Of a DNA stretch of 60,000 bases, positions 1 through 58,206 are shown one piece after another. The stretch is from Botryllus schlosseri. Lineage: Eukaryota. Position 1 is the first letter of the stretch. Each line of letters starts with the position of its first letter. Under the pieces are notes generated by a model. The model searched no databases, was not told the origin of the DNA, and was given only the letters and a program-made list of their open reading frames with translations. Made by a program: the position numbers and the translations under genes. The DNA is taken from positions 17,982,001 through 18,042,000 of the forward strand of contig CM119371.1 of the NCBI GenBank assembly GCA_051294905.1, in the 5' to 3' direction.

Positions 1-3000
1 AGTAACGAATAACAGAACCGTCGCAGACGGTGATTCGAATACCGACAAATTCTCACTTATTTCTGATCCAACCCTAATCCTCTGTGAAGTTGAGGCTTAT
101 TCGAAAAGGTGTGAAATAATTGTAAAACCCTACGTCGCTGACAGGATAATGCATCAGACATAGCGATCTAGTTATAGCATGGTCGGGATCCATTCGGGTT
201 CTATAGGTAAATCCAGATAATCCAAAATGAAATATTTGGACTTTGGCGTAGTGTGAATTGAAATAGGATTGACAAACAAGACTACCAAATTTCAACCCGG
301 TCATATTTAGAGATTATACACATATTGATTTGAAACAAGTAATGAAACCTTACAACTCTATTCACGATCCGGCTTTCCGTTTGTCAAAGAGACATTTTAA
401 CATCTTACCATACTCAAAAGAATTATTCATAATATCAACCGGTGTTAAAAATATAGTTTTCACTTACTTGATTATACCACTACAATTCACAAACTTGAAT
501 TAATTCATCCTGGTTGTATTCGTATGATCGGTCTTTTTTATTCAATTGTAAAGGTTGTTACTATTCTGAAGACAAAGTATTTACTAATCGCTGCATATAC
601 GATTCGACTTGAACATATTATATTTTGAGTATACGAGATTTGAATGTCTGAACAATAACTGACTAATAATTTATCACAATTAAATCCGTATATTACAGCG
701 TAAAAGATATTTGAACGTCAGCAACTCTGTACGGTCATAGTTACTACCACTAATTTACCCGGCCAACTCGTCATGATCATTCCTGAAATCTACACAAACA
801 TGACCACTGACTAGAGTTAACCACAAAATAGCATCGAGTTTTAAATCCAGTTGTAGCTTACGTATTATTTGAATGCGGGTTATGTTTTGTTATAATTGGG
901 TATACGGATAAAGTATTAGGGCTCGACATTTTAACATTTTGCCATACTCAGTCAATCAGGAAAACATTGTCAAGTAAATCCGTTACCCGACCAACTCAAC
1001 AATATCCTTATGAAAAGTAGACAAGACTACGCGAGTAATCACTAAAACCTAAAATCCATAACAAGTTCGGTTTTACTCATATCCCTACGACGCATCATTT
1101 TTATTCTGCAAGACAAACTAATTACTACTCGGTATATTTTGTAAGACAAAAGTAATTACTCTTCGGTACAGGGGACTTGAGCTTAACATAATATGTTTGA
1201 GTATATGAGATTTGAAAGGTCGAGCAACGTAGTTAAGAATTCATTTCTTATACGATCAAACGCCGGTGTTACATCGAAAGTTATCATGCTGTAAACATAA
1301 GGATTGACACATTGATTTGACATATGTAATAGTTGATCATGACTTGATTATTAAATTATTCGCGTTAATTAGACCCGGTGTTGTGGTAAAGGTTATTATG
1401 ACAGCAACAAACTTTTCACTACCGTGGTTATTAACATATTGATTTGTAAAACTATACTTGTCTGAAATGTTCTTGATTTGAAAGATATTCCGTGTTGGTA
1501 CAAATCACTCTGCGTATTACGGATATCAGAAAATATTTTTACAAATGTAGTTGTTTCCAGTAACCAAGACTAAAGATGACACAACAATTTCGTTATTCAA
1601 ACATTGAACACCCGATGCAAAATGCTTTATTGGTCAAATTCGCAACGGGTAATTGAAACGACTAAGTGTAGAGTCAGTATATCACAATATCGTTACTATT
1701 GAATCCAGCAATTGATACGATTTATTGTCGGGATTTGTGATAGTACATTGAAACATACACAACTTACAGAGTGTGAAAATATCACTTTGTGTATCGAGTA
1801 CCGTTTGAAGCGTGCGATCAATACATAATTCCGTTCGCACTCTCTAAGACGTTGTGAAGTCTACAGATTTACACTTCAAGACTTTGATCAACACAGAAGC
1901 AATTTGGAATATCTTTACTGGACGCATCCTATTCTACTAGACTTGAGTAATACACAAAACTCATAGCATTAACAAAATCGCAATAGGCGCTACACTGAAA
2001 TCTACAAAATGTGTTTGTATTGCTCAAAGTAGTGATCATAAATTATCATTTGAATAAGTAATTGTAATCATAAAACCAAACTTGCGAAAGTCATTACCAT
2101 AACAAAAGAATATTGTAGGTTGCTTGCTAAATGTATGCCGGAAATATTTGTAGAACGCTCACGACCAAAGAAATCGGAAATCTTCCTATTGTCATTCGTC
2201 AAAGTATATGTTGACACAATACTCATCCCGTAAAAGATCTTACTTGTATGTGATTAAATCGCCGGTAATTAACTCGCTAAATCAAACCATAAGGAAATTT
2301 CACTCACTCGATGGATATGAAACAGCGTCGCTTAATCGGTCTATATCGTTTTTCTAAAGGTAAATCATATCCAGCCAATTGAAAACAATTTTCACTAGCT
2401 TGGTAATGAAACCGAAGTCTTCATTCAACGTTTTGTTTGTGTCAAATACTTTGCAATAAACACACTGGAGTGGTTCAGCTTTACATCATCAGACTGTAAT
2501 CTGTAAATCAAGCTTACATCCGATTTGTAACTGCATTGTTTACCTAACCGAGCTGTATGCATAGTTTGATATTTTTGTCTAGTGATTGCGGAACATACCA
2601 AACGATACACATTCACTCCCGAAATACTGCGTTGATCTCAATTCCCTTTGTCGTGATAATCGAAGTACATTTGTTTCGAATTCGTAACAACCGACTACTT
2701 TTCTACGACATGATAAATTTTTGACAAGTTATGCTTAGAAGATTGGTTGCATATCGCGAAAAATAATATAGCACTCATATTGACACTCATATTACTTGAG
2801 TTTCTCCGCTTACTATATGTAAATGTAACCTCGTCCATCTTTCAAAACCACAACGAACAACGATGAAAAGTATGCAATCAAACACAACATGTTTTACTTT
2901 TGTAGGACACTAATTATTATCTCATTTCATACTACGTGTATAAGAAAGATATTCATGACACACGAAAATATTCGCTCATGCTACGAACCTGTACAATCAT

Positions 3001-5150
3001 TGGTGACGCTTTCAAACTGGTTCGACGTCACAAGAACTTTATTGTCTGAGTCATTGTTCATGTATCTTAATAATCAAATAGTTCAACACAGAACTAGTAC
3101 TAACAGAAACATCAGAGTTGTTTACACAAAAGTTTGTATATGTGCACAGTATACGAATACCATGTGTAAGTCCAGCACAATTGTGGTATCCATACGAGTT
3201 TAGTTACCACAATTTACGACACCGAGGTCGCGTCATCTTTCGTAAGACAACAAACCAAGGCTTCAGGATATGTCCATGTCATAGCAATAAATCAGCTACT
3301 CCAACAACAGAGTGCATATGTTTCTAGTTACGGTGCTTACATCTTACACACAAATCAATCTACTTTACTAACGAAAAGTGGTGAGTCATCATATGGTTGT
3401 CCTCACAACTAAATCATACTATCATACAAAATGGTCGTTATAGTTTGCACACCAACGGTACATCATACAAGTAACAAGTCTCGAGAATCCCGTTATTCAA
3501 AAAACGTGAACGTATTTCTACACCAAGTCGTTATGTTGATGAAAGCGTATATTGTAATATCATGATCGATTTGCATTCGTTGGTCACAAACTGTCACTAC
3601 TCTAAATAATTCTTTTCACCCAAACACAAACGCATACTTGTCACCATTCGTTTTCATCAAGCACGAGTTCGAGAAACTTACTTACTACGACATGAATTTT
3701 TATTTTTTATGTTGTGTAAATAGGTAATAATTAATTCAAGTAACACTATATCAACATCATCGAGTTGTGCTAATAGATTTACATGTGGTCTTGTGGTTTT
3801 CGTCGGGACATACAACACGAACTAACTGTAGACTCCTCTCTGTTGTACAGCTACTCGGTAATCGAAATGCATTAACATGTAAACAACGATCTTGTGTCGT
3901 CACACCAAAAATATGTTCACTGTCGCGATACCCCGCACAAGACATGCATAGCCTTTTCACACTCGTAATAGTATACCAACGTCAAGCGATAACGTTTAAC
4001 AACACCAACGACACTGAACCCGCGACGTTTACCTATGTAAAATTACCATTTTCACCCGGAGGCCTGCCGTTTCCTGGAGTAACAAACCTTTTTCACTTGG
4101 AAATATATTTTTTCTCTGGTTAACAAACGTTTTTCGCTTGGAAATATATTTTTTCTCTGGGCAACAAACCATTTTCACTTGGTGGTCCGTCGTTTACCCG
4201 AGTAAAAATATCATTTTCCTTTGGAGATCCGGCGTTTACCCAGTGTAACAATACATTTTCACTTGGAAAAATACTTTAACCTAGAGTAACTAATCATTTT
4301 CTCCTGGGTAACAAACCCTTTTTGTCTGGAAAACTATCATTTGCCTGAGTACCAATACCGTTTTCACTTGGAAATCTATCTTTCACCTGGGTAACAATAT
4401 CATTTTCGTTTTGAAAACTGACAACCACACCGGACAATTTGATATTTTTGTATATTGTTACAACGGACAGTGACAAAATACACACCAACAACGACTCCGA
4501 TACATTTGTCCAATCAAATATTCACTTGCTCTGATGCATCCCATCAAAATCATTGGTTACTCACATACAATAACAATGTGCTGTTGTACATCGACATGTA
4601 TGTTTTCGGAATTGGTGAATAAAGGGGTTTCCGATATGTCCGTGATGTCTGGGTTCGTGCTTTGGATTTTCCAGAGTCAAAATGTCTGAATAAAACACCT
4701 CCTCGACTTTGGTAACTGGTTGATAAACGGATAGTGGTGTTCGGAAAACGGGTGAATTTATGTTCCCCATCGCGCTAACAACTCCGGGTTACTTGTGAGT
4801 TTCCTCGGGTCTGTTTACTATATTGGGTCTTTACTGATCAATACATGTCGCTCCAGTCAGCTGAAACCGGATCACTAATATGAGAAAGTGTGTGGGGGCC
4901 TGATCCGGATATTCACTCATGAACCAAAGACCAATATTCAAGTAAACATGTTACAGACCGTGTTTTGTCTCCATGAAAAATACCAATGCATACACCATCA
5001 CATACAAGTAACGTCACGATTGTTCACAAGTATTCGCGTAAACGAGGTGTACATACAATGTGTCGGTGTACAAACATCATGGAAAACAGATTCATGTTCT
5101 CAAGTATCATCATGCGACGACTCTGTACATTCAATGTGGGCATAGATGAC
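1..5150 (+). repeat. Left arm of giant inverted repeat (probably extends beyond window start)
   Basis: Position x pairs with 11278-x, and every ORF here has an identical mirror ORF (e.g. 74..304- / 10974..11204+). I noticed only three mismatches (811/10467, 1790/9488, 4284/6994) in a non-exhaustive comparison. Confidence 0.97.
4020..4420. repeat. Degenerate ~42-bp tandem repeat (mirror copy at ~6858-7258)
   Basis: Recurring TTTTCACTTGGAAA...GGTAACAA units. In the mirror orientation they read as 14-aa FPSENxxxT-like units broken by stops and frameshifts. Confidence 0.8.
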
Positions 5151-6127
5151 ACACGACATGATAAAATGGACAGTGCATTATGCATACCGATACATTCTCA
5201 GTCAAATATGCGAACCGTGTACTATCACGCATCCCGATTTTCGCTGAATATCCACAACACCAACAAATCTGTACATTTCTTTTCCCTCGACCTCGACGAT
5301 AGAGTTGTCATCCCAATGTACCAATCGAGTGTATGGTTCATCAGGTGTAAAATCCAAATCAAATGTCACCAAGGTATCGTTTTTCATTTTCAATATTTCC
5401 ACCGCTGCATCTTGTCTGTGTCGTAAAACAACGGTGTGGGGCCAGAGGAATCTATGGACAGTTACGCGTAGTCCCATATTTACTCGTGGGTATACTCAGG
5501 TAACGACAACGCTTTCTCAGTGGTCTGCGTGGGTGAACCGTTTCAATACGTAGCTGGATCAACTAGACCAAAAGTTTCCAACCGTGATTTATGTTGACCT
5601 GTCGAGTTACGAGATAGCACCCTCTTGCGGTGTGATTAACACGAAATAAGCCTTCAACTCACAGAGACACACCTTGGAGTACATTATCTAATCGTAATCG
5701 AACTCGAGATTCACACACACACACAGAGTCCCTGTTTACGATTTCAATCCGGAGTCACTGTTCACGATGTTTATCTGTAGTCGTTATGTGGGAGTAGCGA
5801 CATCTGACATATTCATCGCGTGAAAGATTGATAGCGATGGTGATCGCCAAATACATAAAATCAGGTGAAACACTGCGGTCTCAGCAAAAAAGTTTGCAGG
5901 TTAGGACGACCAATACGTGGAGGGATTGAGCGAGTTACGCAACCCGATTATGTCGAAGTCTGGATCACGATACAAGTCTACTTGAAAATCCGGACAATCT
6001 TGCAAAATCAAGGTGTGAACCCGTGAAAGGGTTGTACTCGTGTGAGATTCATTTTTCACAAGTTGGGTTGAGGCGGTTCATACTAAGACCATGTTACGTC
6101 CAAATATGGCTGCTTGCCTGTCTCCAA
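5151..6127. other. Unique 977-bp spacer of the palindrome
   Basis: Symmetry ends at 5150/6128 (..CATAGATGAC | GTCATCTATG..). Contains a 91-aa protein-like ORF (5202..5477-) of unrecognised family. Confidence 0.9.
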
Positions 6128-9100
6128 GTCATCTATGCCCACATTGAATGTACAGAGTCGTCGCATGATGATACTTGAGAACATGAATCTGTTTTCCATG
6201 ATGTTTGTACACCGACACATTGTATGTACACCTCGTTTACGCGAATACTTGTGAACAATCGTGACGTTACTTGTATGTGATGGTGTATGCATTGGTATTT
6301 TTCATGGAGACAAAACACGGTCTGTAACATGTTTACTTGAATATTGGTCTTTGGTTCATGAGTGAATATCCGGATCAGGCCCCCACACACTTTCTCATAT
6401 TAGTGATCCGGTTTCAGCTGACTGGAGCGACATGTATTGATCAGTAAAGACCCAATATAGTAAACAGACCCGAGGAAACTCACAAGTAACCCGGAGTTGT
6501 TAGCGCGATGGGGAACATAAATTCACCCGTTTTCCGAACACCACTATCCGTTTATCAACCAGTTACCAAAGTCGAGGAGGTGTTTTATTCAGACATTTTG
6601 ACTCTGGAAAATCCAAAGCACGAACCCAGACATCACGGACATATCGGAAACCCCTTTATTCACCAATTCCGAAAACATACATGTCGATGTACAACAGCAC
6701 ATTGTTATTGTATGTGAGTAACCAATGATTTTGATGGGATGCATCAGAGCAAGTGAATATTTGATTGGACAAATGTATCGGAGTCGTTGTTGGTGTGTAT
6801 TTTGTCACTGTCCGTTGTAACAATATACAAAAATATCAAATTGTCCGGTGTGGTTGTCAGTTTTCAAAACGAAAATGATATTGTTACCCAGGTGAAAGAT
6901 AGATTTCCAAGTGAAAACGGTATTGGTACTCAGGCAAATGATAGTTTTCCAGACAAAAAGGGTTTGTTACCCAGGAGAAAATGATTAGTTACTGTAGGTT
7001 AAAGTATTTTTCCAAGTGAAAATGTATTGTTACACTGGGTAAACGCCGGATCTCCAAAGGAAAATGATATTTTTACTCGGGTAAACGACGGACCACCAAG
7101 TGAAAATGGTTTGTTGCCCAGAGAAAAAATATATTTCCAAGCGAAAAACGTTTGTTAACCAGAGAAAAAATATATTTCCAAGTGAAAAAGGTTTGTTACT
7201 CCAGGAAACGGCAGGCCTCCGGGTGAAAATGGTAATTTTACATAGGTAAACGTCGCGGGTTCAGTGTCGTTGGTGTTGTTAAACGTTATCGCTTGACGTT
7301 GGTATACTATTACGAGTGTGAAAAGGCTATGCATGTCTTGTGCGGGGTATCGCGACAGTGAACATATTTTTGGTGTGACGACACAAGATCGTTGTTTACA
7401 TGTTAATGCATTTCGATTACCGAGTAGCTGTACAACAGAGAGGAGTCTACAGTTAGTTCGTGTTGTATGTCCCGACGAAAACCACAAGACCACATGTAAA
7501 TCTATTAGCACAACTCGATGATGTTGATATAGTGTTACTTGAATTAATTATTACCTATTTACACAACATAAAAAATAAAAATTCATGTCGTAGTAAGTAA
7601 GTTTCTCGAACTCGTGCTTGATGAAAACGAATGGTGACAAGTATGCGTTTGTGTTTGGGTGAAAAGAATTATTTAGAGTAGTGACAGTTTGTGACCAACG
7701 AATGCAAATCGATCATGATATTACAATATACGCTTTCATCAACATAACGACTTGGTGTAGAAATACGTTCACGTTTTTTGAATAACGGGATTCTCGAGAC
7801 TTGTTACTTGTATGATGTACCGTTGGTGTGCAAACTATAACGACCATTTTGTATGATAGTATGATTTAGTTGTGAGGACAACCATATGATGACTCACCAC
7901 TTTTCGTTAGTAAAGTAGATTGATTTGTGTGTAAGATGTAAGCACCGTAACTAGAAACATATGCACTCTGTTGTTGGAGTAGCTGATTTATTGCTATGAC
8001 ATGGACATATCCTGAAGCCTTGGTTTGTTGTCTTACGAAAGATGACGCGACCTCGGTGTCGTAAATTGTGGTAACTAAACTCGTATGGATACCACAATTG
8101 TGCTGGACTTACACATGGTATTCGTATACTGTGCACATATACAAACTTTTGTGTAAACAACTCTGATGTTTCTGTTAGTACTAGTTCTGTGTTGAACTAT
8201 TTGATTATTAAGATACATGAACAATGACTCAGACAATAAAGTTCTTGTGACGTCGAACCAGTTTGAAAGCGTCACCAATGATTGTACAGGTTCGTAGCAT
8301 GAGCGAATATTTTCGTGTGTCATGAATATCTTTCTTATACACGTAGTATGAAATGAGATAATAATTAGTGTCCTACAAAAGTAAAACATGTTGTGTTTGA
8401 TTGCATACTTTTCATCGTTGTTCGTTGTGGTTTTGAAAGATGGACGAGGTTACATTTACATATAGTAAGCGGAGAAACTCAAGTAATATGAGTGTCAATA
8501 TGAGTGCTATATTATTTTTCGCGATATGCAACCAATCTTCTAAGCATAACTTGTCAAAAATTTATCATGTCGTAGAAAAGTAGTCGGTTGTTACGAATTC
8601 GAAACAAATGTACTTCGATTATCACGACAAAGGGAATTGAGATCAACGCAGTATTTCGGGAGTGAATGTGTATCGTTTGGTATGTTCCGCAATCACTAGA
8701 CAAAAATATCAAACTATGCATACAGCTCGGTTAGGTAAACAATGCAGTTACAAATCGGATGTAAGCTTGATTTACAGATTACAGTCTGATGATGTAAAGC
8801 TGAACCACTCCAGTGTGTTTATTGCAAAGTATTTGACACAAACAAAACGTTGAATGAAGACTTCGGTTTCATTACCAAGCTAGTGAAAATTGTTTTCAAT
8901 TGGCTGGATATGATTTACCTTTAGAAAAACGATATAGACCGATTAAGCGACGCTGTTTCATATCCATCGAGTGAGTGAAATTTCCTTATGGTTTGATTTA
9001 GCGAGTTAATTACCGGCGATTTAATCACATACAAGTAAGATCTTTTACGGGATGAGTATTGTGTCAACATATACTTTGACGAATGACAATAGGAAGATTT

Positions 9101-11277
9101 CCGATTTCTTTGGTCGTGAGCGTTCTACAAATATTTCCGGCATACATTTAGCAAGCAACCTACAATATTCTTTTGTTATGGTAATGACTTTCGCAAGTTT
9201 GGTTTTATGATTACAATTACTTATTCAAATGATAATTTATGATCACTACTTTGAGCAATACAAACACATTTTGTAGATTTCAGTGTAGCGCCTATTGCGA
9301 TTTTGTTAATGCTATGAGTTTTGTGTATTACTCAAGTCTAGTAGAATAGGATGCGTCCAGTAAAGATATTCCAAATTGCTTCTGTGTTGATCAAAGTCTT
9401 GAAGTGTAAATCTGTAGACTTCACAACGTCTTAGAGAGTGCGAACGGAATTATGTATTGATCGCACGCTTCAAACGGTACTCGATACCCAAAGTGATATT
9501 TTCACACTCTGTAAGTTGTGTATGTTTCAATGTACTATCACAAATCCCGACAATAAATCGTATCAATTGCTGGATTCAATAGTAACGATATTGTGATATA
9601 CTGACTCTACACTTAGTCGTTTCAATTACCCGTTGCGAATTTGACCAATAAAGCATTTTGCATCGGGTGTTCAATGTTTGAATAACGAAATTGTTGTGTC
9701 ATCTTTAGTCTTGGTTACTGGAAACAACTACATTTGTAAAAATATTTTCTGATATCCGTAATACGCAGAGTGATTTGTACCAACACGGAATATCTTTCAA
9801 ATCAAGAACATTTCAGACAAGTATAGTTTTACAAATCAATATGTTAATAACCACGGTAGTGAAAAGTTTGTTGCTGTCATAATAACCTTTACCACAACAC
9901 CGGGTCTAATTAACGCGAATAATTTAATAATCAAGTCATGATCAACTATTACATATGTCAAATCAATGTGTCAATCCTTATGTTTACAGCATGATAACTT
10001 TCGATGTAACACCGGCGTTTGATCGTATAAGAAATGAATTCTTAACTACGTTGCTCGACCTTTCAAATCTCATATACTCAAACATATTATGTTAAGCTCA
10101 AGTCCCCTGTACCGAAGAGTAATTACTTTTGTCTTACAAAATATACCGAGTAGTAATTAGTTTGTCTTGCAGAATAAAAATGATGCGTCGTAGGGATATG
10201 AGTAAAACCGAACTTGTTATGGATTTTAGGTTTTAGTGATTACTCGCGTAGTCTTGTCTACTTTTCATAAGGATATTGTTGAGTTGGTCGGGTAACGGAT
10301 TTACTTGACAATGTTTTCCTGATTGACTGAGTATGGCAAAATGTTAAAATGTCGAGCCCTAATACTTTATCCGTATACCCAATTATAACAAAACATAACC
10401 CGCATTCAAATAATACGTAAGCTACAACTGGATTTAAAACTCGATGCTATTTTGTGGTTAACTCTATTCAGTGGTCATGTTTGTGTAGATTTCAGGAATG
10501 ATCATGACGAGTTGGCCGGGTAAATTAGTGGTAGTAACTATGACCGTACAGAGTTGCTGACGTTCAAATATCTTTTACGCTGTAATATACGGATTTAATT
10601 GTGATAAATTATTAGTCAGTTATTGTTCAGACATTCAAATCTCGTATACTCAAAATATAATATGTTCAAGTCGAATCGTATATGCAGCGATTAGTAAATA
10701 CTTTGTCTTCAGAATAGTAACAACCTTTACAATTGAATAAAAAAGACCGATCATACGAATACAACCAGGATGAATTAATTCAAGTTTGTGAATTGTAGTG
10801 GTATAATCAAGTAAGTGAAAACTATATTTTTAACACCGGTTGATATTATGAATAATTCTTTTGAGTATGGTAAGATGTTAAAATGTCTCTTTGACAAACG
10901 GAAAGCCGGATCGTGAATAGAGTTGTAAGGTTTCATTACTTGTTTCAAATCAATATGTGTATAATCTCTAAATATGACCGGGTTGAAATTTGGTAGTCTT
11001 GTTTGTCAATCCTATTTCAATTCACACTACGCCAAAGTCCAAATATTTCATTTTGGATTATCTGGATTTACCTATAGAACCCGAATGGATCCCGACCATG
11101 CTATAACTAGATCGCTATGTCTGATGCATTATCCTGTCAGCGACGTAGGGTTTTACAATTATTTCACACCTTTTCGAATAAGCCTCAACTTCACAGAGGA
11201 TTAGGGTTGGATCAGAAATAAGTGAGAATTTGTCGGTATTCGAATCACCGTCTGCGACGGTTCTGTTATTCGTTACT
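6128..11277 (-). repeat. Right arm of giant inverted repeat
   Basis: Reverse complement of 1-5150; ends ...TTCTGTTATTCGTTACT at 11277. Confidence 0.97.
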
Positions 11278-11319
11278 TATTAAATGTTACCAGTGAAATC
11301 CAGTTCCGTGACATACTGA

Positions 11320-11710
11320 TTATCAAAATATTACATTGTGGCGATTGGAATGTATGTAACAACAAGTTGCGAGGGATGGCTATGTCTTAGGTGTTATCTC
11401 GTGAGCGATCGTGGGATTTGCAACCTATTTCACACCTTTTTGAAGTGTTAGTTTGTGAACGCGGCTATTGTTGGTATCACCGTCTACGCCAGTTATGTGA
11501 CAAACTTATTACCAAAATATTACATTGTCAACGATCGGCATGTATGTAACAGCGAGTCGCGAGCGATGGTTATGTCTTAGGTATTATCTTGTGAGCGATC
11601 GCGGGATTTTACCAATATTTCGCACCTTTTTGGAGTGTTAGTTTGTGAACGCGGTTATTGTTGGTATTCGAATCGCCGTCTACGCCGGCTCTGTGGTAAA
11701 CTAATTACCA
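11320..11710. repeat. Two tandem ~190-bp degenerate units
   Basis: CAAAATATTACATTGT...ATGTATGTAAC...GTGTTAGTTTGTGAACGCGG repeated at ~11323 and ~11513; partial related units at ~11160 and ~11740. Confidence 0.8.
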
Positions 11711-11754
11711 AGCGACTGATTCCTAGATTTAGCAAACTATTTCACACCCTTTTT

Positions 11755-12299
11755 GGTGAAAGTACGACATGCCGCCCGCAGTCTATAACCGAAAGTACGA
11801 ATCACCGCCGTGTCCATAAGAATAACGATATATTGAAGTCACATTCACCGTAAACGTTGGGATTAACTCGAATCGGTCATATATAATAATTTGGGATATA
11901 CACATTAACTAAGAGTCAATCACGTGACTATTTACTTGATACATATTCAACACCAGTCGAGAGATGTCTATACCCGAAAGTACGATATGCCGACGCACCC
12001 ATAAGAACACATTGGGAATCACCACCACTGCCTATACGCGAAATACGACATGTGAAAGTACGACGTGCGACAGATGCCTATACCTAAAAGTACGATGTGC
12101 CAACACGAGTTTTCAATACGATATGCGACAGATGCCTATACCTGAAAGTACGATGTGCGAGCGCACCCATAAGAACGCATTACGATGTGCGACCGAGAGG
12201 GGGGTCCAAAAGTACGATGTGCCACCACGAGTTTTCCATACGATGTGCGACCGCACCATAAGAGCCCCTGCCAGGTCACGAGCGATCATACTAACTACT
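11755..12299. mobile_element. Putative Polinton/Maverick-like terminal region: subterminal TACGAYRTGC motif array ending in ...TAACTACT
   Basis: About 10-11 copies of (AAG)TACGATGTGC. The reverse complement of the end reads 5'-AGTAGTTAGTATG, matching the AG/AGT-repeat termini described for Polintons. No Polinton core gene recognised. Confidence 0.5.
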
Positions 12300-12556
12300 C
12301 CCGGCTAGGCATTCGCAAAGCGAAAACACAGAAGAGAATTCGATTTTCGCAGAGACTTCGCTATATATGGGCATTTACAAGCGAAAGGACAAGAAGTATA
12401 CGATTTTCGCTGTGATTTCGGTTTATATAGATAGGTGTGCGTCTATAAATGGTGAAGAATTGTTATTGAACAGAATTTTAGGTGGGGCAATGCCCCAGTT
12501 GCCCTATAGGACGAGCCGCCACTGGTACAAAGCTACCATGGCGGACGTCATTTTAG

Positions 12557-13563
12557 TAGGGATGGTGTGAACCTCTGAAAGGTTCAGGTTCGTGTGAACG
12601 CGAACCTTTTTGAAAGGTTCTGTGTGAACGCGAACGCGAACCTCATGACGTCACATGACGTCATTTTCCTAATTCTAACCCTACATTTCAGTGAAGTGAT
12701 AGCCTATATTAATGTACACGATACCTAGCGACGACTCTGGCCACATGATGCCACAATGCTGAAGTACATATTGACGATCTAAACGTCACCAAATGTATCA
12801 ACTGGGACAATCAAATGATATAATAATACTCCATAAAATCACTACCTTCCGTCGCTTTGCCAACAATTTCGACAAGTACTTGCAAGGGAATATATGCTTA
12901 CGTCTAGGCCAGACCGGACAATGTATTCGACGTCTGAGTATTGCTATACGTTGATATTGAGCAGAGTGTAAAACGGATTTCTATACTTGCTACCGATAAT
13001 ACCCCATTAACAAGTTTTACAGCAGTAGCCAACACCCCAATCGCACGGATTTAGTTTTTATGATACAATAATAGACATTTAAGATTGACCCAGTACGCCT
13101 GCTATACTTTTTACATCAGACAACGATATCAATCTCATTGATTGGTTGAATAAGCATCATTTCGCTGACTACCTTAATACCTAGTGTATTTCACTCTTGA
13201 TGATGTGTGATTGCGGGTAACGCTCACAGCAGAGAGTAACTAAATATTCCCAAACGGAAATGCTTGATATTTCGAGTAAACTTCTGTAACAAAGTAAGTA
13301 AAATTTTTTAGATTGCCAATATGCATGCTCTGCTCATTTAGTGTTGATTTTTTTTATGCTGCCAGCGCCATTCATAGAGTGACCCAGAGTTGAAATGCAA
13401 TGCAATGCAATGAGAGATGCAATGCAATGAAGTGAAAATTGTAATATATGAAAAAGGTTCACAGTGCAGAACCTACCGAGGTTCGTTTGTGAACGTGAAC
13501 CTTTAAATTTCCGAGGTTCACACACAGAACGCGAACGTGAACCTCACGTTCACACCATCCCTA
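12557..13563. mobile_element. Non-autonomous hAT element (family A), 1007 bp
   Basis: TIR TAGGGATGGTGTGAAC / GTTCACACCATCCCTA, perfect 8-bp TSD CATTTTAG, subterminal GTGAAC repeats. Confidence 0.95.
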
Positions 13564-13797
13564 CATTTTAGCATTGAACAGCAGTACCAGGTTCCTGCTG
13601 TTTGGTCTACGACAGAATAAGCCCAAGCTGTTTGAGAGGCAGCATTTATTGCGTAGTGTAAAAAGGCGCAGTGCAGTCGACACATTGGTTAAAAAGTAGT
13701 AGGCTAAAGCTACTTATCATTGACAAATTTTTCTATATTATATTGCACTTGCGCATATAGTTTTAGCTACTAATAAGGCTAAATCTGATAAGTTGAA

Positions 13798-14755
13798 ATG
13801 AGCAGGCGTAAAAACGTTTTTCGTGACGATCATGAGAGAGAAATCAAACTTATCAAACGAAGCTTGAAGGGCGAGTGTTTCGCACATTGCGATATCTGCA
13901 ATTGTAACATTAACCTGGAGCTGGAGGACATAGGAAAGACCGCGGAAGGAAAGAGTGTCATAATGATTAATTTGAACTAGTCGATGAATAATTTCCCACA
14001 AGTCGAACAGCATCAACGACCACAGACGACAAGGCAGCTGCTGCAGAGGGTACCTGGGCATTCAATACTGTCAAACACAAGCAATCATTCCTCACCAAGG
14101 ATTGCGCATCGCAATTGTTCAAGCAATATTCCCCGATTCTCTCATCGCAAATAAGCTTTCTTCGGCCAGGACCAATACTACAAGCAATGTTCCCTCTGAT
14201 TTTTGACGACCCTTGGACAACAGTGCGTAATGAATGAAAAAAAAAGGTCATCACTTCGAATTTTTTGTGCGCAACTTAGATTTTCTATGCGCGGAGACCG
14301 TGTTATCATTGCGCAAGCTGCGCACGCAATGGGAACATTGACAACAAGCATTGTTACTGGAGTACTTTCTCCATAGGCTCAAAATTGATTTTTTTCTGAA
14401 CTTGGTGTAGGTCTTTTTTTAATCTTGGTTGACGCCTCTAATCACAACGAGGCGAAGAAGTTTGGTTTATCACCCTATGGGGGGGGGTAAGACCGACGTT
14501 TTTTTGGTGGGGCGGGGGCTGGCGAAGTGCTGTTGCGGCCCAGAGTAAAGGTAAACCTAGACCTAAGCTGTTGTGAGATCCATGAAGCACTTTCTAATAA
14601 CAGGGAGTTGCTGGAGCAGATTGTTTCTGGCAAAAAGTATGGAATGTGATACGCCACGGCTCGTATAAATATAAAGTATGTTCAAAAACGCTTTTTCAGG
14701 GTAATCTAATTTTTCAACTGTCCTTATTTTTGGGTCCATGTCGATGGCAACCCTG
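13798..14755 (+). mobile_element. Internally deleted hAT (Blackjack-like) transposase remnant
   Basis: N-terminal C-x2-C zinc finger (FAHCDICNC), AAEGTWAF.TVKH.QSF...DC, FPDS.IA.K.S.ART, DASNH, then C-terminal VKVNLDLSC.E...N.ELL..I.SGKKY*. Terminus ATGGCAACCCTG at 14755. Confidence 0.75.
14185..14340. mobile_element. 156-bp hAT MITE inserted in the transposase remnant
   Basis: TIR CAATGTTCCC/GGGAACATTG; TSD ACTACAAG/ACAACAAG (7/8). A related copy lies at ~16645-16818. Confidence 0.8.
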
Positions 14756-19392: not shown

Positions 19393-20077
19393 TAGGTATG
19401 GTGCGAGCCCAAGAAAGCTTCAGGTTCGTGTGGACGCGAACGTGAAACTTGTGACGTCATGTGATATCATATTGGTAATTCCAACCCTTATATATATATC
19501 AGTGAACCGATATATAAATGTACGTACACGATACCTAGCGACGACTCAGGCCACATATTGCCACAATACTCAAGTACATGCTGACTTTTTAAAAGTCAAA
19601 AAATTTATCAACTAAGGCAATCAAAAGCTATAATAATCCTATGAAATCAATGTCTTCCGGCGCTTTGCCGACAATTTCGAAGAGGATTTGCAAGGGAATA
19701 CAAGCTTACGCCTTAACGTTCGAGGCCAGACCGGACAATGTGCTCGGCGTCTGACTATTGCGACATTGATATTGAGCAGATTGTAAAACTGGTTTTGATA
19801 CCGATATTATCCAATAAAGAAGTTATACAGTAGCCAACACCAACACCCTAATCACGCAGCTTTGTTTTTATGATGCTATAAACATATCAAATAAAGATGG
19901 ATCCCGCACGCTTGCTGGTTTTTTTCACATTAGACAACAACGCCAAAGATGCGGAAAATGGTAGAAAAAGGTCAACAGTGGATAACCTACCAAGGTGCGT
20001 TTGTGCACGCGAGCCTGTAACTTTCTGAGGTTCACACACAGAACGCGAACTTGAACCTCACCTTCACAACATCCCTA
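19393..20077. mobile_element. Older diverged copy of hAT family A
   Basis: Colinear similarity to 12557..13563 with degenerate TIRs and internal deletions. Confidence 0.85.
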
Positions 20078-21071
20078 CTTTACAGTATACCACGCGATGC
20101 TGACAGGAATGGGAATATTACATCTCTCGTTGTACACGCAGAAATCACGTACATGCTGTTAGATTCAGCCATGTGACAACAGACGACGCTGGTGGTGTTT
20201 ATTTCCGACTGTACCGTCTAAAAACGATCTTTTGTCTAAAGATAATCACAGTTTTCAAAGGGAAGTAAATACACAGAATATCACAGAAACGGCGTGGTTG
20301 TTTATATACTCAATTCGGACCGCGGATGCATATCCATGAAACAATGGTCTACCAGCATTGTTTCCTGCATAGCGGTAGACCAATCAGAAACACTACATTC
20401 TATGACTATTTAGGAATGTGTGACCAGAACTGATTTCTGCCTTGTTCTATGACATATATCCAAGGTAACTAAATGAGCCGATTGTATATGCTTGTCGTTC
20501 TGATTCTATTCCCATAGTGTATGAGTGGGTCAACGAGGACGTAACAAGCCACACGGCAGGTCTATATCCAGATCAAGCTAATACCGATGCCGATACGAAT
20601 GAATCAAACGTCACGAAGAGGGAGATAGTAGCCTGACCCAGAAACCAAAAATGTATATGTCCTCTCTGAATCAGTGCGCAAATCTCATTATTATCCACTC
20701 ATATTTTGTTGGAATTTAAGACGTAACATTTCGCACGCATCCAGTACACCGAGTGGGCTTACATCAAATAAAGATCGACGGCATTCCACGACGTGATTCG
20801 GTACGTAAACAATCGCTAAATCGTTTCCCAAGAGGCACGTGATTTATTGAATATTCCTATTCAGGAAATTAAACGGTGCATAATCTATTCAGCAGTTTAG
20901 CCACTACCCACATACACTATATATTATACAGGATGCGCGACTGTCAACATGCGACATGTGGTGCAAAGCAAAATATAATATCAATCCAGTATTTGAAGAT
21001 ATCGCCCACATCAGGTATTATAATAATAGTCCTCAGCGCGGATTTTCAATACCAGGTGTTATCGATGAAAT

Positions 21072-21237
21072 TAGTGATGGTGTGAACCTCTGAAAGGTTC
21101 AGGTTCGTGTGAACGCAAACCCTTTTGAAAGGTTCTGTGTGAACGCGAGCCTGAACCTCATGACGTCACGTGACGTCATATTCCTAATTCCAACCCTACA
21201 TTTCATTGAAGTGATAGCACTAAATGATAACGTACAC
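21072..21237. mobile_element. Terminal fragment of hAT family A
   Basis: TAGTGATGGTGTGAACCTCTGAAAGG... matches the family A end. Confidence 0.85.
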
Positions 21238-21689
21238 CACGCGTCACAAACGTTAACGGGAATTTATAGGCTAGTCACTCTCATTAAGCAATTTGTCAGA
21301 ATTATGAATGATAGTCGGTTGCGCCGATTCTAAGAACAGGGGGAAATTTGAATCCGTGAGCAGCGATCTACCTGTATATTTGCTGACTCTACTTTTCGTA
21401 CTGCAAGATAGACAAGGTACACAGCTTCATAGCCATATGTTGCCTTCAAATACGCTTTAGCAAATAGCTTACTGTGCTACTGTGCAAAACTTGCCTTCTT
21501 AGCGTTCTTTTCTGAGTACGACATCAACATAATTTACTGATGTCTCAGAGATTTTATTGATTCGGTTACTTTATTGAGCTGCTAATCATTTGATAAATTG
21601 TGCCTATAACTAGTAGGATGTCCGGAGAAGGTGGCGTTTCATATTGCGGCAACGGATCCATTATAAGACAAATCATATATTTCGCATTA

Positions 21690-24600
21690 CCTCCACACGC
21701 CAAAACAGAAATACTTTTTCAGTCGTATCTTTTTTGAATGCAAAGCAATCATCTTCAACTTTTCGCTGCTTGGATTGCTTTGAACAACTTACTATGAATG
21801 AGTTGTGACTGAAGGTATGAAAGACTAATAACTAACTGCATATCTATAGAGGACGAATCTACCAAACCCACGCACGAAACAGATGTTTCAAGTACACAAC
21901 TGAAGTTAATGATATTACAGGAGTTGCCAGCATAAAATCACACATTTAGGCTAATTAAAATTAAGATGTTTAGCAACCGAAACCTTTCAAAATACGTGGG
22001 TCAAAATGTCATTGTAGGAATGTGATGATTACTGAAGACACTTGCTGTCAGGTGCTTGTTACTGCATTGGTTTACTTCGCTGTGTGGATTCTGTTCATTA
22101 CCTCAGTTGAGTATATCTGTACTTGTTTGCTTATAGTTGATTGTATAGCCTAATTTTCGTTCATATAATCCTAGAAATCGATCGAGCAGATTTGTACATG
22201 CTTTCCTCGAAAGGTCACTACAACTTTTTCAGATACTATTGACACCATCTACTGTAGAATGACTTTCTTTCAAGAGGAGTACAGTGTCGGCATAAACATT
22301 TTTACATTCAGTTGTCTATATTACTACAGACGTACATAAGGCCGAAGGTGTACGATATGCCTAATTGCCGGCCTGCATTCATCTGGAATTAGATTGCTCA
22401 TTCTCGGACATGAATAATTAACCCTCGAAAAACTCATGCGGATGGCGGACCCTCTTGAACAACAACTTTCTCGTCCTATGAAATAAAGTCTGATACTGCT
22501 AACATGGTCTCACCAAACAAGGAAGTGATCTGCACTCATTGGATCATTCTGACTGACTGACTGAAATATTTCACTCGGGGATCTGGATTGTTTGTGGAGG
22601 GAGGAAATAAATATGATGCGACGCTAGTATGCGAAGCAAGCATTGTCCTGCACGAAAAAGCGAATGATTAAGATGCGCGGACGACGGCGCCATCGTTCCA
22701 AGTCTTTGGACGATTTTGCTATACTGGTAAGCTGGCATAAGTATACATGTAAATTCGGCGGAGTATGATTGATACATCATTTGGTCAATAATTTGAGGTA
22801 GATGATCATTTCCACTGTAACATATCGGTAAATATGGCTTGCACATTTTTAAGTAAGTTAGTAATTTCGGATCAATTTTTGACGCAAATTTAAGTTTAAG
22901 GGTTGGTGCCGAAATCATGGTTTAGTTAAGATTTGAAAACTATTAAAAGTATAAAACCCTTCGAAGCTAAATATATTGATAAATGTGACTTTATCTATCG
23001 CAAGATCAGTGGTTCTCAAACGTTATTAGACTCGCCCTCCTTTATGATAGTGATAATTTTCGCACCCCCTTTATCGTCATATTACAAAATACAATCAGAG
23101 TGCTAGCAATCCCAACGGATAGTTGTATGGCATGGAATGCTATGACTGTTGATGAGAGAATTCTCAAATATGAAACTAGGACTATAGACAGAGCAGTAAC
23201 TACGTATTGGAGGTAAATCGCGAGTGGCGCCAAAATAGTTTCAGTTGACCGCAGCTTCGTGCCCCTTCAGATGCTTTCACTCTTTCTAGTTTGAGAACCA
23301 CTCGCTAAAGAATGGTTCCCGATTGATTGACATTTTCAGCATTTTCGTAGCATAGTGAAATATTGGTCGGGGAAACAAATGCATCATCATTGGTGTGGTT
23401 GTTGCGGGGTATCAAATATTGACTTAATAAAACATTGAAAGGCGTATTTACGTAGGTAAACCTAAGCCGTCCGTATGATATGAAAGCCTTCGCTGAGCTA
23501 CTGTTTGATTTTTCTGGGTAGACGAGATTTGAAACAGATTGGTCGATATTGGAAGTGAGTTTCCGAACATTGTGTACGGTCACCATTGCCAAGGACCACG
23601 GCAGTTGTTCCTATAACCTTTCGAGATTCACTGAATCCCACAGGCTAAACAGTGGCCTTCCAATTGGTTTGAAAAATATAATTCTTTGGGAACTTCTTAA
23701 TGACTCATACTACATATCAGAATATACCTATTCCAAGAAACATCTCTCTTGATAGCACGATCAATTTGAGATTTACCTATTCTAACAAAGATCTCTCTTG
23801 ATGGCACAATCAATTTGAGATTTAACCATTCTAAAAAACGCCGCTCTTCTTCGTGCCGAATCGAACCAAATAATTGCTATATATATCCGTCGCCTGCGAT
23901 ATCTGTCTCTCCACCGATCATAATTATTGGTCGACCATACCACCTGGAAATTTCAGAAGTTGCAAATTAGCGCCTACTACTACTCAGATTTACGAACATA
24001 ACAGAACAGATAGATACACCGAAATTACAGTTCATACGAACCGAACTTATACATCCGCAAATGGTGATGGCCGCGTCTACAAAAACGGTCATCGGAGGTA
24101 CTAATAGTTCTATCCGCTCAAAACGCACAGTGCACAATGTGGAAGACAAGACACAAGGCGATATAATCTGTAGGAGGATACAGAAAGAACCGACCACGGT
24201 CTCAAACCGGAACTACGAATCGTAATAGCGGTGACTAACATAGGTCGTTGGGGGTACCAATATTAATATCCGCTCAAGAACACAATGTAAAACGCGGTAC
24301 TCAAGACGCAATGTAGACTTGTAATCAAGTCACAACGTTCCGAGTCACAAGTCAATCATAGTTTTGAAAATTTTGATCGATTAAAGTCTAGTCATTTCCA
24401 ATTCACAGCCGAGTCAAGTCCGAGTCCAAGCGGGTCGACGAAGGCCTAGTCCAGTGTTTCTCAAACTTTGTTAGACATGAGTACCTTGATGAGAGTGAAT
24501 AATGTCACCCCCTTCCTATTTCATGTTCAATTGTTCATAGCCTACATGATAAGGCTTCTACATGTCCATGGGAATTAAGTAAACTCTAAATTGTAACCAT

Positions 24601-24915
24601 CGACTGTGACACCGCATTGTGCATTGGAATATAGATCATAAGGGAAACACATAATATTACACGTAAATATTACCTTCTGTTTCTTTCACTCAGTATACAA
24701 TGTGCATGCTTCGTTTTTACATCGTCTATATAGGTCAGTTGGGTGTCTGATTTCGAAGACTACTCCAAGTCATTTCGACACCTTCCTGTCTTTCATTGTA
24801 TCGCAGTCTTGTGGTGCATTGACATGATGAAATAGTTAACAATAAGTGTCTATTCGTCTGGTAAGGAACGAATAGACACTTCCTCAGGCTATTCGTCCTG
24901 CAGACCTGACATTCA
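21690..24915 (+). repeat. Segmental duplication copy A (upstream flank of FucT paralogue)
   Basis: Colinear with 53110-54823 plus 57095-59030, roughly 85-90% identical by eye. Confidence 0.9.
23007..23303. mobile_element. ~300-bp Charlie-like hAT MITE (family B; other copies 32547-32823, 41055-41378, 47865-48156, ~54519-54816)
   Basis: TIR CAGTGGTTCTCAAAC / GTTTGAGAACCACT and shared internal sequence. Confidence 0.8.
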
Positions 24916-28295: not shown

Positions 28296-28461
28296 TGGAT
28301 TATCACACCTTTATTCATTGAACCAAGATTTATGTCGTCCGTCGCAGTACCTTAGTAAAGTTAACCATACATTTGAATTCACGGGATTCGAATTTGGTGA
28401 AACGCAAATTACGGGCAGCGAACTTGCATATAATTGTTACTTATGTAAAAGTATATTTCAC

Positions 28462-28971
28462 CTGAAATATTGCAGGTAAGCGGTTTCGTTGCGATCCAAG
28501 TAGTTCAAATGGTCAATCAGATGCTTCATAGATGGAAAGTCTTCCACGAAAATGAATCCGGTGGCGGGGATATGTGCTTCGTATACCTCTTCAGTAGAGC
28601 CCCATACAACCGGTACGACTCCGGCTTTTAAGGCACGGAAAAACTTCTCCGTCACGTAGTCTTTACAATGATAGGAATTCTCGAATGCGAAATAAAATTT
28701 GTATTGCGATGTGTATTCTATCATTTCATTTTTCATGTAGTCATTTCGAGAAACAGGTGCTTTCCCAAAGCATCGCCCGAATGCTTCCAGCTTCAAGCCC
28801 ATTGTCAGCAATTTCTTTACATAAGCAAGTCTGACAACGGCCCCTTGAGTCAGATCACAATTTGAAATTGCGATCAACGCCAGATGCTTCTTATTCGCCA
28901 GTGGCTTCTCCAATTCGGTTCCAGTTTCAGCTACTGCATTTCCGTAAGTCAATTGAAAATCCGAGTCTCGT
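28462..28971 (-). CDS. Alpha-1,3-fucosyltransferase (GT10) exon 5 (catalytic domain)
   Basis: 510 nt, phase 2-2 (ACAG|A ... AG|GTGAAA). Encodes RDSD, ISNC, YKFYFAFENSYHCKDYVTEKFF, VPVVWG, FIFVEDF and YLDRNETAYLQYF. Confidence 0.95.
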
Positions 28972-29045
28972 CTGTCGTTGGTACGATATCGAAGTGTTAA
29001 TATTGGGATACCATATCATACAGAAGTCCAATGTCATGTAATGAC

Positions 29046-29959
29046 TAGGGATGGTGTGAACCTCTGAAAGGTTCAGGTTCGTGTGAACGCGAACCTCTTT
29101 GAAAGGTTCTGTGTGAACAGGAACGTGAACCTCGTGACGTCACGTGACGTCATATTGCTAATCCCAACCCTATCTTTCAATGAAGTGATAGCGTATATTA
29201 ATGTATACGATACCTAGCGAAGACCCGGGCCACATAATGTCACAATGCTGAAGTGCATATTGGCGTATCAACTGAGGCAATCAAATGATATAATACTTCC
29301 ATAAAATCCATAAGCCAACAATTTCGATGAGTACTTGTCATGGAATATATGCTTATGCCTTAACAGTCTTGGCCAGACCGGACAATGTATTCAGCGTCTG
29401 AGTATTGCTACATTGATTTTGGGCAGAGTGTAAAACAGGGTTTCTATACTTGCTACCGATATAATCCCATTAATAAGTTATACAGCAGTAGCCAACACCC
29501 CAATCGCACGTTTTTTTTTATGATACAATAAAATTATCAAGTCAATATTGATTGGTTGAATAAGCATCATTCGCTGACTACATGTAGTGTATTTCGCTCA
29601 TGACGTTGTGTGATCGCGAGTCCAGCTCTTAGCACAGAGTCGCTAAATATTCACAAACGGAAATCTGGGTATTTGGAGCAAATTTTTGTAACAGAGCAAG
29701 TAAAATTTTTGAGATTGTCAAGGTGCACATTCGTTTTGTGTTGATTGCTTCTGCTGCCAGCGGCATGCACAGAGTGCCCCGCAGTTGAAATGCAATAAAT
29801 TTGCACTAAAGATGTCATAATGAAGTGAATATTGAAAGTATATATGAAAAAGGTTCACAGTGCAGAACCTATCAAGGTTCTGTTGTGAACGCGAACCTCT
29901 GAATTTCTGAGGTTCACACACAGAACGCGAACGTGAACCTCACGTTCACACCATCCCTA
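29046..29959. mobile_element. hAT family A copy, 914 bp, in FucT intron 4
   Basis: Same TIR as 12557; perfect TSD GTAATGAC. Confidence 0.95.
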
Positions 29960-30040: not shown

Positions 30041-30946
30041 TTTGAAGAGCTTCTTGGAGGTACAGAACTTCAATATACAATTAAATGGTATATTCATATT
30101 GAAATGAACCCGAATATTTTCGGCTGACACTCGTCAGGGGTAATCGTCAGCAACTAGTAGAGAATTGGAAAGAACATTGTATATCAACAATCGTATCACA
30201 AAATATGACGTCACCAGCATGAAATTTCGAATGAGAGAACGTTCAATGTACTATTTTTAGGTGATACACGAACTCCTTTTGTTGACAGAGTTTTGGTTGG
30301 TGTATTTTGATAAAAGTTGATTCCAAGGCACACAAATGGAATTGTGAACGACCTCGACCTACGATTCGAAATCGGTCGTCTCGATAATTATTCGCACAAA
30401 TCGGATTATCCAACAGATGTTTGCCGATGGCAGAATTAATGGCCTTTGATCGATCAGCATCAATCTTAAGTGGATGAGTTAAGGGTGAGCTTTTCACATC
30501 GCGTGACGCACGTGTTCTGATAAATCTGGGGACATGTTGGTTTATGCGGTCCTGCAGACGTCTTGACGTTCTTCCCACGTAGCCACAATCACAGTGGCAC
30601 CTATATTCGTACACTACATTACTTTGTTGAAGTGCAGGAAGCACGTCTTTGCGTGTTGAAGGGAGCAGTTGTGTTGTTGTAAAAATCACATTGGTTTTGA
30701 CTGTATCGTAACATTTACCGACAGCAGAAATCAATTGTTTTTCAAAGCGGGTGGAAATGGGGCCAATCCAAGGTATATGGATATAAACATCTTTTATTGT
30801 TCGTGCGGTGGGCTCTGCTCGTTTTTCTGCGTTGAATTGCGTTAATTTCCTCTCCATGCCGCGGCTGATGACGTGTTCAGGGTTCAGGGACGAGTGTCAG
30901 CCGAAAATATTCGGGTTCATTTCAATATGAATATACTATTTAATTG
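30041..30946 (-). mobile_element. 5'-truncated Penelope-like retroelement with GIY-YIG endonuclease and inverted partial pLTR
   Basis: ORF 30243..30857 contains VVYEYRCHCDCGYVGRT.RRL..RI.QH and SAIGKHL. 30889-30950 is an inverted copy of 30075-30135. Flanking direct repeat TATATCTCTAATC. Confidence 0.9.
30108..30141 (-). ncRNA. Minimal type I hammerhead ribozyme motif in Penelope pLTR
   Basis: ACCC-CUGACGA-GUGUCAGCC-GAAA-AUAU-UC-GGGU: conserved core, 4-bp stem I, palindromic AAUAUU stem III. Confidence 0.75.
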
Positions 30947-37844: not shown

Positions 37845-39211
37845 CATATTTGCAACACTACGATAGCGTTGCCATACGTCCGGAATTTCACGAACATGCC
37901 CGGAATTTCACTGAAAAGCACTGCGTCCGGGAGGAAATTCTAAAATATGCCTAAAAGTCCGGAATTTTAAAGGTTTGAGGTAAGATCATAATTTTTTCGT
38001 AAATCAACATAAACAATAGTATTTTCAAGCAGATTTATGCTATTCGACATTTTCTTCGTACTGTGCGCGAGTTAATGCGACGTGTTATGATATTAGTATG
38101 GGTACCAGGCACCACCCTCGCCAAGAAAATTCAAACAAAAATAAATATTATTAACCAGAGAGAGAGAGAGAGATATGATATTCTTTTTCGCCTGCACCAT
38201 CGAGATGCTTTGATGACGGAGTTGCGATACGGCATCATGAGGTCATCTAGTCTGCGCCCCCGTTTTTTTTCTCCTCCATGCTATCCTTGATTGCTGAGCG
38301 CCTTGCAGGATAGCTGCGGATACCAACTTTTGAGTCTTTGGTATGACCCGACCGGGGATCGAAAAGCCGGACGCATAACCATTACACTATCTCGCTAGGC
38401 TCATTAACTGAAATAAGTCTAATTGTAATCGCAATTATAAGCTAACGGTAAATTCCTAGAGTTGGTTAAGGCTGATTGGATGCTTCAGTTAAAGACAGCG
38501 GTTCCAAATCTCGGGGTCGTTTGCCTTTATCTGGACATCGCGATGATGTTGGACGTAATCAGCTTCCTAGGCCGTAAGTGCGGACAAGCCGATTTTTTTA
38601 GTAATCAGCTTATTCAGTTTTTAGCTGGGCCGCGGAACATTTTCAAGTTGGAAATGAGGTCGCGACCATAACAAGTTGAAAATCACCGGATGTGCAACCT
38701 GCTGGTGCATTTTATAGTAGCCTAATATATGGAAGAATCAATATTATTAACAAAATTAATTCAGAAAATTCAACAACCAGATGCATTTAATAAGTGCTCA
38801 GAAAGTCACATCGATTACCATATGGTTGGCCCAAGATCAGTGCTTTTTTATGGCAAAAAATATATTTTCGGACCTGATTAAAACACACAGCCAGATAGCC
38901 GCACCGACCTAACGGCATAGCCGGGCTGTCAAACACAATTCCGACAGGCCAGACACGACGCCGCCAGATGATTTCATCCGACCCGTGACGAAATCTATTG
39001 CAGACCCTAGCAAGTAGCAATTACCAGAGCTCACATTACAGATGGCCCAATTCATGACCTATGTTCTACTCCATTCCTGTATGCAGTCGATGGGCAATGC
39101 TTTGCTAGTGTTACTAGGATTACAATAAGAGAAGGTATGTAATGACTTGAATGCATAGCTTTGTAATCGCTTTGCACTGATACGAGACATCGGCAGCGCG
39201 TCAGTACTTAC

Positions 39212-39328
39212 CGATAGGTTAGTGACGCGTTGAATCCTATTTGATCAGCCTGGTGTAACCAGTTGCTCCGAGACATATACGGTGGTGCCTCTGCGCAACG
39301 CCATATCCAGTATTGATTAGGATTCCGT
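39212..39328 (-). CDS. Alpha-1,3-fucosyltransferase exon 4
   Basis: TTTCAG|A...CG|GTAAGT. Encodes RNPNQYWIWRCAEAPP...FNASLTYR (GT10 R.P.Q.W....ESP and FN...TYR motifs). Confidence 0.93.
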
Positions 39329-40324
39329 CTGAAATGCAACCCAAAAGAATCGAGCATAACACAGTAACAACGCGCGGTTACACTATGATATGCTGATAAC
39401 GCCAGATGCGACACGGCAATAAGCGGGTTTAATACAATGTATGGTAATAATATTGTAACGTTTTTACACAGTGTGGGTGGCTACGTCTTATTGTCGAAAT
39501 TTGTTAATGCTCCAATTATCTCTCCAGTTATCCAATCTTGAACAATGAGCATATTTATTTTGCACAACGCAGAGTTGATACACAGTGTGGATCCACACCA
39601 CACCTTAAAGGTGATACAAGAAAAGAGATCCTGCCTCACGATTATATCGCGGTATAAATTAATCACAACATATTATTCCAAATGATGCCTGAAAAACTAT
39701 AGCATAAGTACGAATGGAGTTTAACGGAACGTAGCCACATAGGAACGTTGATAGGTGTGAACGAAATCTGACGGACCATGGACCGACCGGATTTTTCTCC
39801 TTTTGGGCCGGAGCCGGATCAGTAATTTTTCTGATACGGGCGGAGTCTGATCGGAGCCGGATAAGTACTTGTTACTAACAATATGACAGCCATACCTTCT
39901 TCCACCCTCGAATCAATAGTTAAAGGGAAACGTTGATGGAAATAAACCTCATGCTTAGTCCAAGTTGGCATAATTACTTCAGGTAAGCGTTGGATTTGAC
40001 CTTTGAGTTTTTAATGTCCTGTCTGCCTTGTTTCAATCAATATTCAAAACCACCCTCTGAGTAGATAATAATTATCGGAGATTGTCGGTCCGGATCATGG
40101 TCATTTCTAGAATCCCGCCCCGGAGTCGGACCGCAGTCGGACCAGAGCTTTAAAAACGCGACCGAAGTATAGGACCAGAGAATTTGACGATCCGCCCCGC
40201 ACTAGCACGAAGGTACGTATAGGATTTAAGACAATTCGAATCAAAAACAACCATCTGTTCCGCGACGTAATCAAGAACTAAACTAGCGAAATCTTGATTA
40301 TATACAGAAAACTCAACTTGCCGA

Positions 40325-58170: not shown

Positions 58171-58206
<36 letters not shown>

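Follow-up and report, generated by a model that had tools for sequence, protein, structure and literature searches.

A largely palindromic repeat element with a Maverick-type end in Botryllus schlosseri: a probable helper-dependent satellite

The DNA analysed here (the window) comprises 60,000 nucleotides of Botryllus schlosseri (assembly GCA_051294905.1, contig CM119371.1, positions 17,982,001 to 18,042,000 of the forward strand) and contains no N. It opens inside a very large palindromic element, which is the subject of this report. In reverse complement, 6128-11277 matches the segment 1-5150: every base x of that segment pairs with 11278-x, without gaps and with three mismatches (811/10467, 1790/9488 and 4284/6994). 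By blastn the two arms are 99.942% identical over 5150 bases, an arm-to-arm difference of 0.058% per base. This pairing, which is far beyond chance, ends abruptly at 5150/6128 and leaves an unpaired spacer of 977 bp (5151-6127). A sequence-only reading of the same DNA had described a near-perfect palindrome with arms of at least 5.15 kb, a 977-bp spacer, three substitutions and no indels; direct pairing and blastn agree with that description exactly. No internal inverted repeat was found in the spacer, Rfam gave no match over 5000-13700, and folding of the loop yielded no stable apex structure (no shuffle control was made at that length).

The same reading had let the element end where the mirror ends, at 11277. 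The mirrored part stands, but 11277 is merely the mirror of the first base of the window and not the end of an arm; the right arm runs on to 12299. From 11277 onward there are related subterminal repeats and then a Maverick-type end (Table 1). The ~190-bp repeat overlaps the final 170 bases of the mirrored right arm. If the arms are symmetric, simple arithmetic predicts a left end about 1022 bases upstream of position 1, outside the window, a full arm length of 6172 bp (at least 5150 bp are observed) and an element of 13,321 bp (~13.3 kb), of which 93% is palindrome. Within the 60-kb window, neither the element nor its right flank is found a second time. The 41-42-bp array varies in length between copies of the family. 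Arm length varies as well: copies in other sequencing runs carry internal deletions of 100-575 bp between 7786 and 11146, and one of these, 9373-9684, was seen in all four runs described below.

Table 1. Features of the palindromic element and its right border (window coordinates)
Feature	Position	Strand	Remarks
Left arm	1..5150	+	Truncated by the window edge; pairs with the right arm
Spacer / hairpin loop	5151..6127	.	Unpaired; 44% G+C vs 37% in the arm
91-codon ATG-to-TGA frame in the spacer	5202..5477	-	Homologues of 90-98 amino acids; no named family
Right arm, portion mirrored in the window	6128..11277	+	99.94% identical to the left arm
41-42-bp tandem array in the arm	6864..7255 (mirror 4023-4419)	.	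Skip and go-back joints at 6945-7259
~190-bp subterminal repeat	11110..11711	.	Two full copies and one partial copy, the partial one spanning 11277
Outer right arm, 1022 bp	11278..12299	+	Membership inferred from common repeats, continuous read cover and the end motif; mirror partner beyond the window
~32-bp subterminal tandem repeats	11958..12251	.	Adjoin the element end
(ACT)2 end motif	12294..12299	+	Reads (AGT)2 from outside
Candidate 6-bp target-site duplication	12300..12305	+	Right copy only; left counterpart outside the window

Assembled contigs of four public runs (X1, X17, X16 and X6), from four studies, were aligned to positions 5151-14150 at a likeness setting of 90%. This target is limited to the spacer and the right arm; the left junction must therefore appear as a strand switch. 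Such an opposite-strand joint, 5151/6128, is listed in three of the four runs: in four contigs of X1 (depth 279.7), two of X17 (3472.6) and one of X6 (27.6). All 30 bins of the target are covered in all four runs (250,019, 37,836, 18,886 and 1,113 contigs aligned), and variant contigs number in the thousands. Since the joint is present in several runs and every bin is covered in four, a palindromic apex characterises an abundant family. Among 24 listed runs, 21 contain part of the stretch. These derive from 12 studies; several of them stand under one organism label, and the others comprise three other labels and marine or seawater metagenomes, a distribution that points to a marine invertebrate as the probable host. 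Under the three other organism labels (X5 and X8; X6; X13 and X15), parts of the element were seen with word shares of 0.20-0.37, for which sister species, diet or contamination are all possible sources.

The sequence-only reading had also proposed to compare the depths of arm and spacer. Single contigs of X6 have depths of 24.7 (spacer contig), 27.6 (junction contig) and 53 (inner-arm contig), about 1:2. The summed arm depth is twice that of the spacer in X16 and 5-6 times in the other three runs; summed depth is no copy number, and the excess may come from an arm common to sub-families with other spacers.

These data bear on two simple explanations of the palindrome. First, the host could have made a local inverted duplication of ordinary repeat DNA, by a break followed by fold-back repair. 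The sharp junctions and near-identical arms would fit such an event, but we regard it as extremely unlikely and largely refuted: the same junction occurs at high depth in other individuals (3472.6 in X17), neither microhomology nor filler was seen between the spacer ends and the arm, and the arm is closed by a transposon-type end. Because other individuals share the same apex, the fold-back did not arise at this locus, and a one-off local fold-back is excluded. Second, the locus could be an artefact within a real repeat family, produced by a fold-back read or by an assembler that copied one arm onto the other. This explanation gains from the nature of the evidence, which consists of contigs, none spanning the locus, and from the best run, which holds just 0.76 of the words; a collapsed or mirrored assembly would also place rare alleles in both arms (see below). 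We nevertheless consider it very improbable. The apex joint falls on the identical base in three studies, and the spacer is unique. Moreover, the arms disagree at 10467, the majority base of the family being that of the left arm, and a mirrored read would need a sequencing error to produce this difference. The earlier claim of a real palindrome, and not an assembly mirror, is thus borne out for the architecture of the family, by the joint in three of four runs and by the rare base at 10467 in the right arm only. This single locus, spanned by no contig, is likely to be correctly assembled. Elements of this kind mimic fold-back assembly errors and may be wrongly thrown out.

The right end is marked independently of the palindrome. 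Two X6 contigs match the flank from 12300 on and have different letters before it (24 of 5,413 loose-end rows were listed); they come either from an unoccupied site or from a further copy of the target. The (ACT)2 motif ends exactly at this boundary. On the + strand, the 60 kb contain the hexamer 21 times (3.5e-4 per base), and a motif so rare in the window is unlikely to fall on the X6-marked boundary by chance. According to PMC8097293, (AGT)2 as read from outside is the commonest vertebrate Maverick end. Beyond the boundary, 12300-12527 is a short flanking sequence with a 61-bp internal duplication (12308-12428). Further X6-marked boundaries lie at 12527 and 12557, which suggests nested insertions.

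The comparison of family copies adds a further observation on the arms. The variant table gives the 40 best-supported of 411 rows, 19 of them in 6128-11277; because this is a selection and rare variants are lost from contigs, the rows indicate direction and not rate. At 12 of the 19 sites, a base other than that of the window accounts for at least 99% of the depth summed over X17, X16 and X6 (one site is uncovered in X6). At 11 of these 12 sites the rare base is present in both arms. The twelfth is the mismatch at 10467, with the rare base in the right arm only. Rare alleles are therefore found in both arms despite an arm difference of only 0.06%, and the arms must have been co-edited, that is, rewritten from each other during transposition or in place. 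Other runs with the same organism label hold 0.38-0.47 of the 31-letter words of this copy. This corresponds to a difference of at most 2.4-3.1% per base, an upper bound because the word share also drops with incomplete cover. The earlier suggestion that the fold-back is either very recent or actively homogenised can be narrowed accordingly: homogenisation is supported by the 11 shared rare alleles, and a recent local fold-back is contradicted by the shared apex.

The main rival to the interpretation that we prefer concerns the time of this co-editing. The element would be the same, but its arms would have been kept alike after insertion by chromosomal gene conversion, and the copy would be old and not young. 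Rare alleles in both arms at 11 of 12 sites are what such conversion would leave, and the contrast of 2.4-3.1% (at most) between copies with 0.058% between arms fits an old insertion under ongoing conversion. However, that divergence is an upper bound, as noted above, and the frame in the spacer is still open at full length. In addition, the flank without the element in X6 fits a recent or polymorphic insertion, with the reservation that this run has another organism label and that the flank is possibly a repeat. On these grounds we hold gene conversion in place to be unlikely as the principal explanation. One locus cannot separate a reset at transposition from conversion in place.

The longest stop-free stretch in 5151-12299 has 130 amino acids. 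None of the 92 stop-free stretches of at least 38 amino acids over 4977-12305 reached the Pfam cut-off; five weak matches (E 0.02-0.04) fell below it and were rejected. None of 20 sequences had a match better than E 0.012 in PHROGs, and two matches at E 0.012-0.013 were likewise rejected. Thus neither Pfam nor PHROGs pointed to a polymerase, an integrase, an ATPase, a protease or a capsid protein, of which heavily eroded remnants could still be present, and Pfam found no transposase frame in the element. With none of the stretches at the Pfam cut-off and PHROGs null, the description of the arms as heavily decayed coding sequence, made in the sequence-only reading, has no support. Its statement that there is no long open reading frame is correct for the arms but does not apply to the spacer, where a 91-codon frame is conserved.

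The homologues of the spacer frame are 11 unnamed sequences in six clusters, 90-98 amino acids long, and the start is aligned in all of them save one N-extended form. Among the ten homologues of the final alignment (P0006 excluded), identity to the window frame is 51-93%, and 29 columns are invariant in the 11-row alignment. Conservation of the whole short frame at this level suggests a real gene, and the product is likely to be an accessory factor encoded by the element. Pfam and PDB sequence searches of the protein gave no match, and none of 27 candidates proved to be a longer homologue. Searches by pattern confirmed no related locus among the matches in viral contigs (4 and 74 matches), metagenome contigs (497) or prokaryote genomes (171). 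Contigs of 922-1192 bp, about as long as a spacer, carry seven of the 11 homologues; short contigs are common in the collection, and we do not count this as support. One further match, P0002 (E 3.5e-6), covers a 22-residue stretch of a repetitive protein and was dropped as chance.

According to the model of P0009, which has seven beta-strands at a pLDDT of 51, the spacer protein is probably small and all-beta; an earlier fold model with a pLDDT of 35.7 was set aside. The best Foldseek match to this low-confidence model had E 2.2e-3 and TM 0.41. The best structural Z was 5.9, with a root-mean-square deviation of 4.0 over 63 residues, and the best Atlas TM, 0.57, was under the bar. These fold matches are too weak to name the protein as a small heat-shock, CS or AMIN-like sandwich. 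Atlas feature matches to HK97-type capsid fragments (0.86-0.89) were below the bar of 0.9 and were not reproduced with P0009.

The gene content is relevant to another possibility, namely that the element is some other foldback DNA transposon (FB, TU or Mutator-like) moved by a cut-and-paste transposase, with a Maverick-like end by chance. Its very long arms, its internal and subterminal tandem repeats and the failure to detect any Maverick gene would all agree with this. Against it stands the exact (ACT)2 at an independently marked boundary, and cut-and-paste alone would seem to leave both the arms of more than 6 kb and the co-edited alleles unexplained. We consider a foldback transposon of this kind improbable.

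We propose that the locus is probably one copy of an abundant non-autonomous Maverick satellite, dependent on a helper for both copying and insertion. Several observations weigh against this. The Maverick descent rests on a 6-base motif and on size, and no homology of arm or spacer to Maverick proteins was found. No helper came to light: end-sequence scans of viral and metagenome contigs gave 0, 0 and 2 matches and no relative, and the two matches extend over 18 bases only and were discarded as chance. Outside the window lie the predicted left end with its copy of the motif and the left copy of the target site. Among the listed contigs, a single one (X17) crosses the right junction, and it reaches just 21 letters past it. 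As for the apex, X16 lacks the joint. With at least 31 letters on the shorter side as the rule for support, only X17 (33 letters) qualifies, X1 and X6 having 24 and 30. The 90% likeness setting of the alignments, the absence of a clean 2:1 ratio in the summed depths and the selected nature of the variant rows count on the same side. Finally, frames of at least 91 amino acids arose in 81 of 1000 shuffles of the spacer, so that the length of the frame alone is unremarkable, and its conservation is a protein-level observation.

A satellite of this kind can be related to the racket model of Polinton transposition. As summarised in PMC4196379, an extrachromosomal single strand forms a racket through its terminal repeats; the protein-primed polymerase copies this racket, and integration follows, with a duplication of 6 bp. 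In that summary, the racket intermediate is a proposal from sequence analysis. In the scheme that we infer for the present element, in each of its enzymatic steps, the protein-primed polymerase of the helper would start at the terminal motif and displace one strand. As 93% of this strand can pair with itself, it would fold back to a hairpin whose stem measures 6 kb (6.2-kb arms) and whose loop measures 1 kb, a racket of an extreme kind. Any change in one arm would be transferred to the other by copying or repair on this hairpin, so that every round would reset the arms while the lineage drifts away from its relatives. Insertion of the duplex by the integrase of the helper would follow and would generate a 6-bp duplication. 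The three arm mismatches would be mutations that followed the insertion. The family itself probably goes back to a single event of polymerase copy-back on one end of a parental element.

More tentatively, and with considerable doubt on our part, the family could represent a distinct heritable class of satellites, present in several marine animal lineages. The snap-back genome of a Maverick or polintovirus would here have turned into a stable, helper-sized, self-resetting hairpin transposon, with a selected loop gene that acts on the helper, through packaging or interference. If this is true, the class would correspond, in animals, to the satellites of phages, and it would put the Polinton racket model to a natural test. 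For an abundant element with a 93% stem and changes in both arms, that model predicts that the arms are reset at transposition and not in place. Palindromes of kilobase size are generally considered unstable. A genome with many of them, and a conserved small loop gene, would be of interest to specialists in transposons and in virus satellites.

The remainder of the window is repeat-rich animal-type DNA. The C-terminal frame of a fucosyltransferase (GT10; Pfam E 2.5e-42) lies at 28461-29015 (-) and an N-terminal frame at 39211-39480 (-), about 10 kb apart; they are probably exons of one host gene. A frameshifted non-long-terminal-repeat retrotransposon (long interspersed nuclear element, LINE), with endonuclease, reverse transcriptase and a weak RNase H match, occupies 48149-52611 (+). 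The 217-amino-acid frame at 30246-30896 (-) has a weak GIY-YIG match (E 0.0084, under the cut-off) and is possibly the end of a Penelope-like element. A very abundant ~1-kb repeat is found at 12557-13563, 29046-29959, 19422-20081, 21072-21237 and 59780-59987, the first copy with sharp ends in the read data at 12557 and 13563 (260 and 373 loose ends in X1). Two copies of a ~3.2-kb repeat, 84-86% identical, lie at 21689-24915 and 53109-59027, the second interrupted by insertions.

The element can be compared with four known systems. The palindromes of ape Y chromosomes, whose arms undergo gene conversion, resemble it in an arm identity above 99.9% and in changes common to both arms. They are single host loci with genes, whereas the present element belongs to a dispersed mobile family. 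Foldback transposons such as Drosophila FB (mentioned in PMC6431247) and sea-urchin TU have long modular inverted arms, tandem sub-repeats and a variable centre, and long modular inverted arms with tandem sub-repeats are found here too. Foldback transposons make target duplications of 8-10 bp and have a cognate DDE transposase. The present element differs from them in its Maverick-type end and in its longer and more nearly identical arms. A full-text search of the literature, with most subscription papers and the Repbase reports (a possible home of non-autonomous Polintons) outside its scope, returned no description of a Maverick-ended, almost wholly palindromic element.

With Mavericks/Polintons the element shares the (ACT)2 right end, a size near the reported range, terminal inverted repeats and an animal host. 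According to PMC8097293, intact vertebrate Mavericks measure 12,723-24,620 bp, have inverted repeats of 46-1,447 bp and end in (AGT)2//(ACT)2 or (AG)3//(CT)3. In contrast, the inverted repeats of the present element are predicted to be ~6.2 kb long, none of the eight core genes was detected in it, and it has one small unrelated central frame. Because it departs from Mavericks in both gene content and repeat length, it is not an autonomous Maverick. In its proposed workings it resembles a non-autonomous Maverick or the snap-back genome of a virus. The snapback genomes of adeno-associated virus (AAV) also have one end doubled head to head around a short loop, and their dependence on helper functions probably holds for the present element too. 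According to PMC10924063, these AAV forms are by-products of vector preparations. The Botryllus element, by contrast, is integrated, heritable and abundant, measures ~13 kb and carries a conserved gene in its loop.

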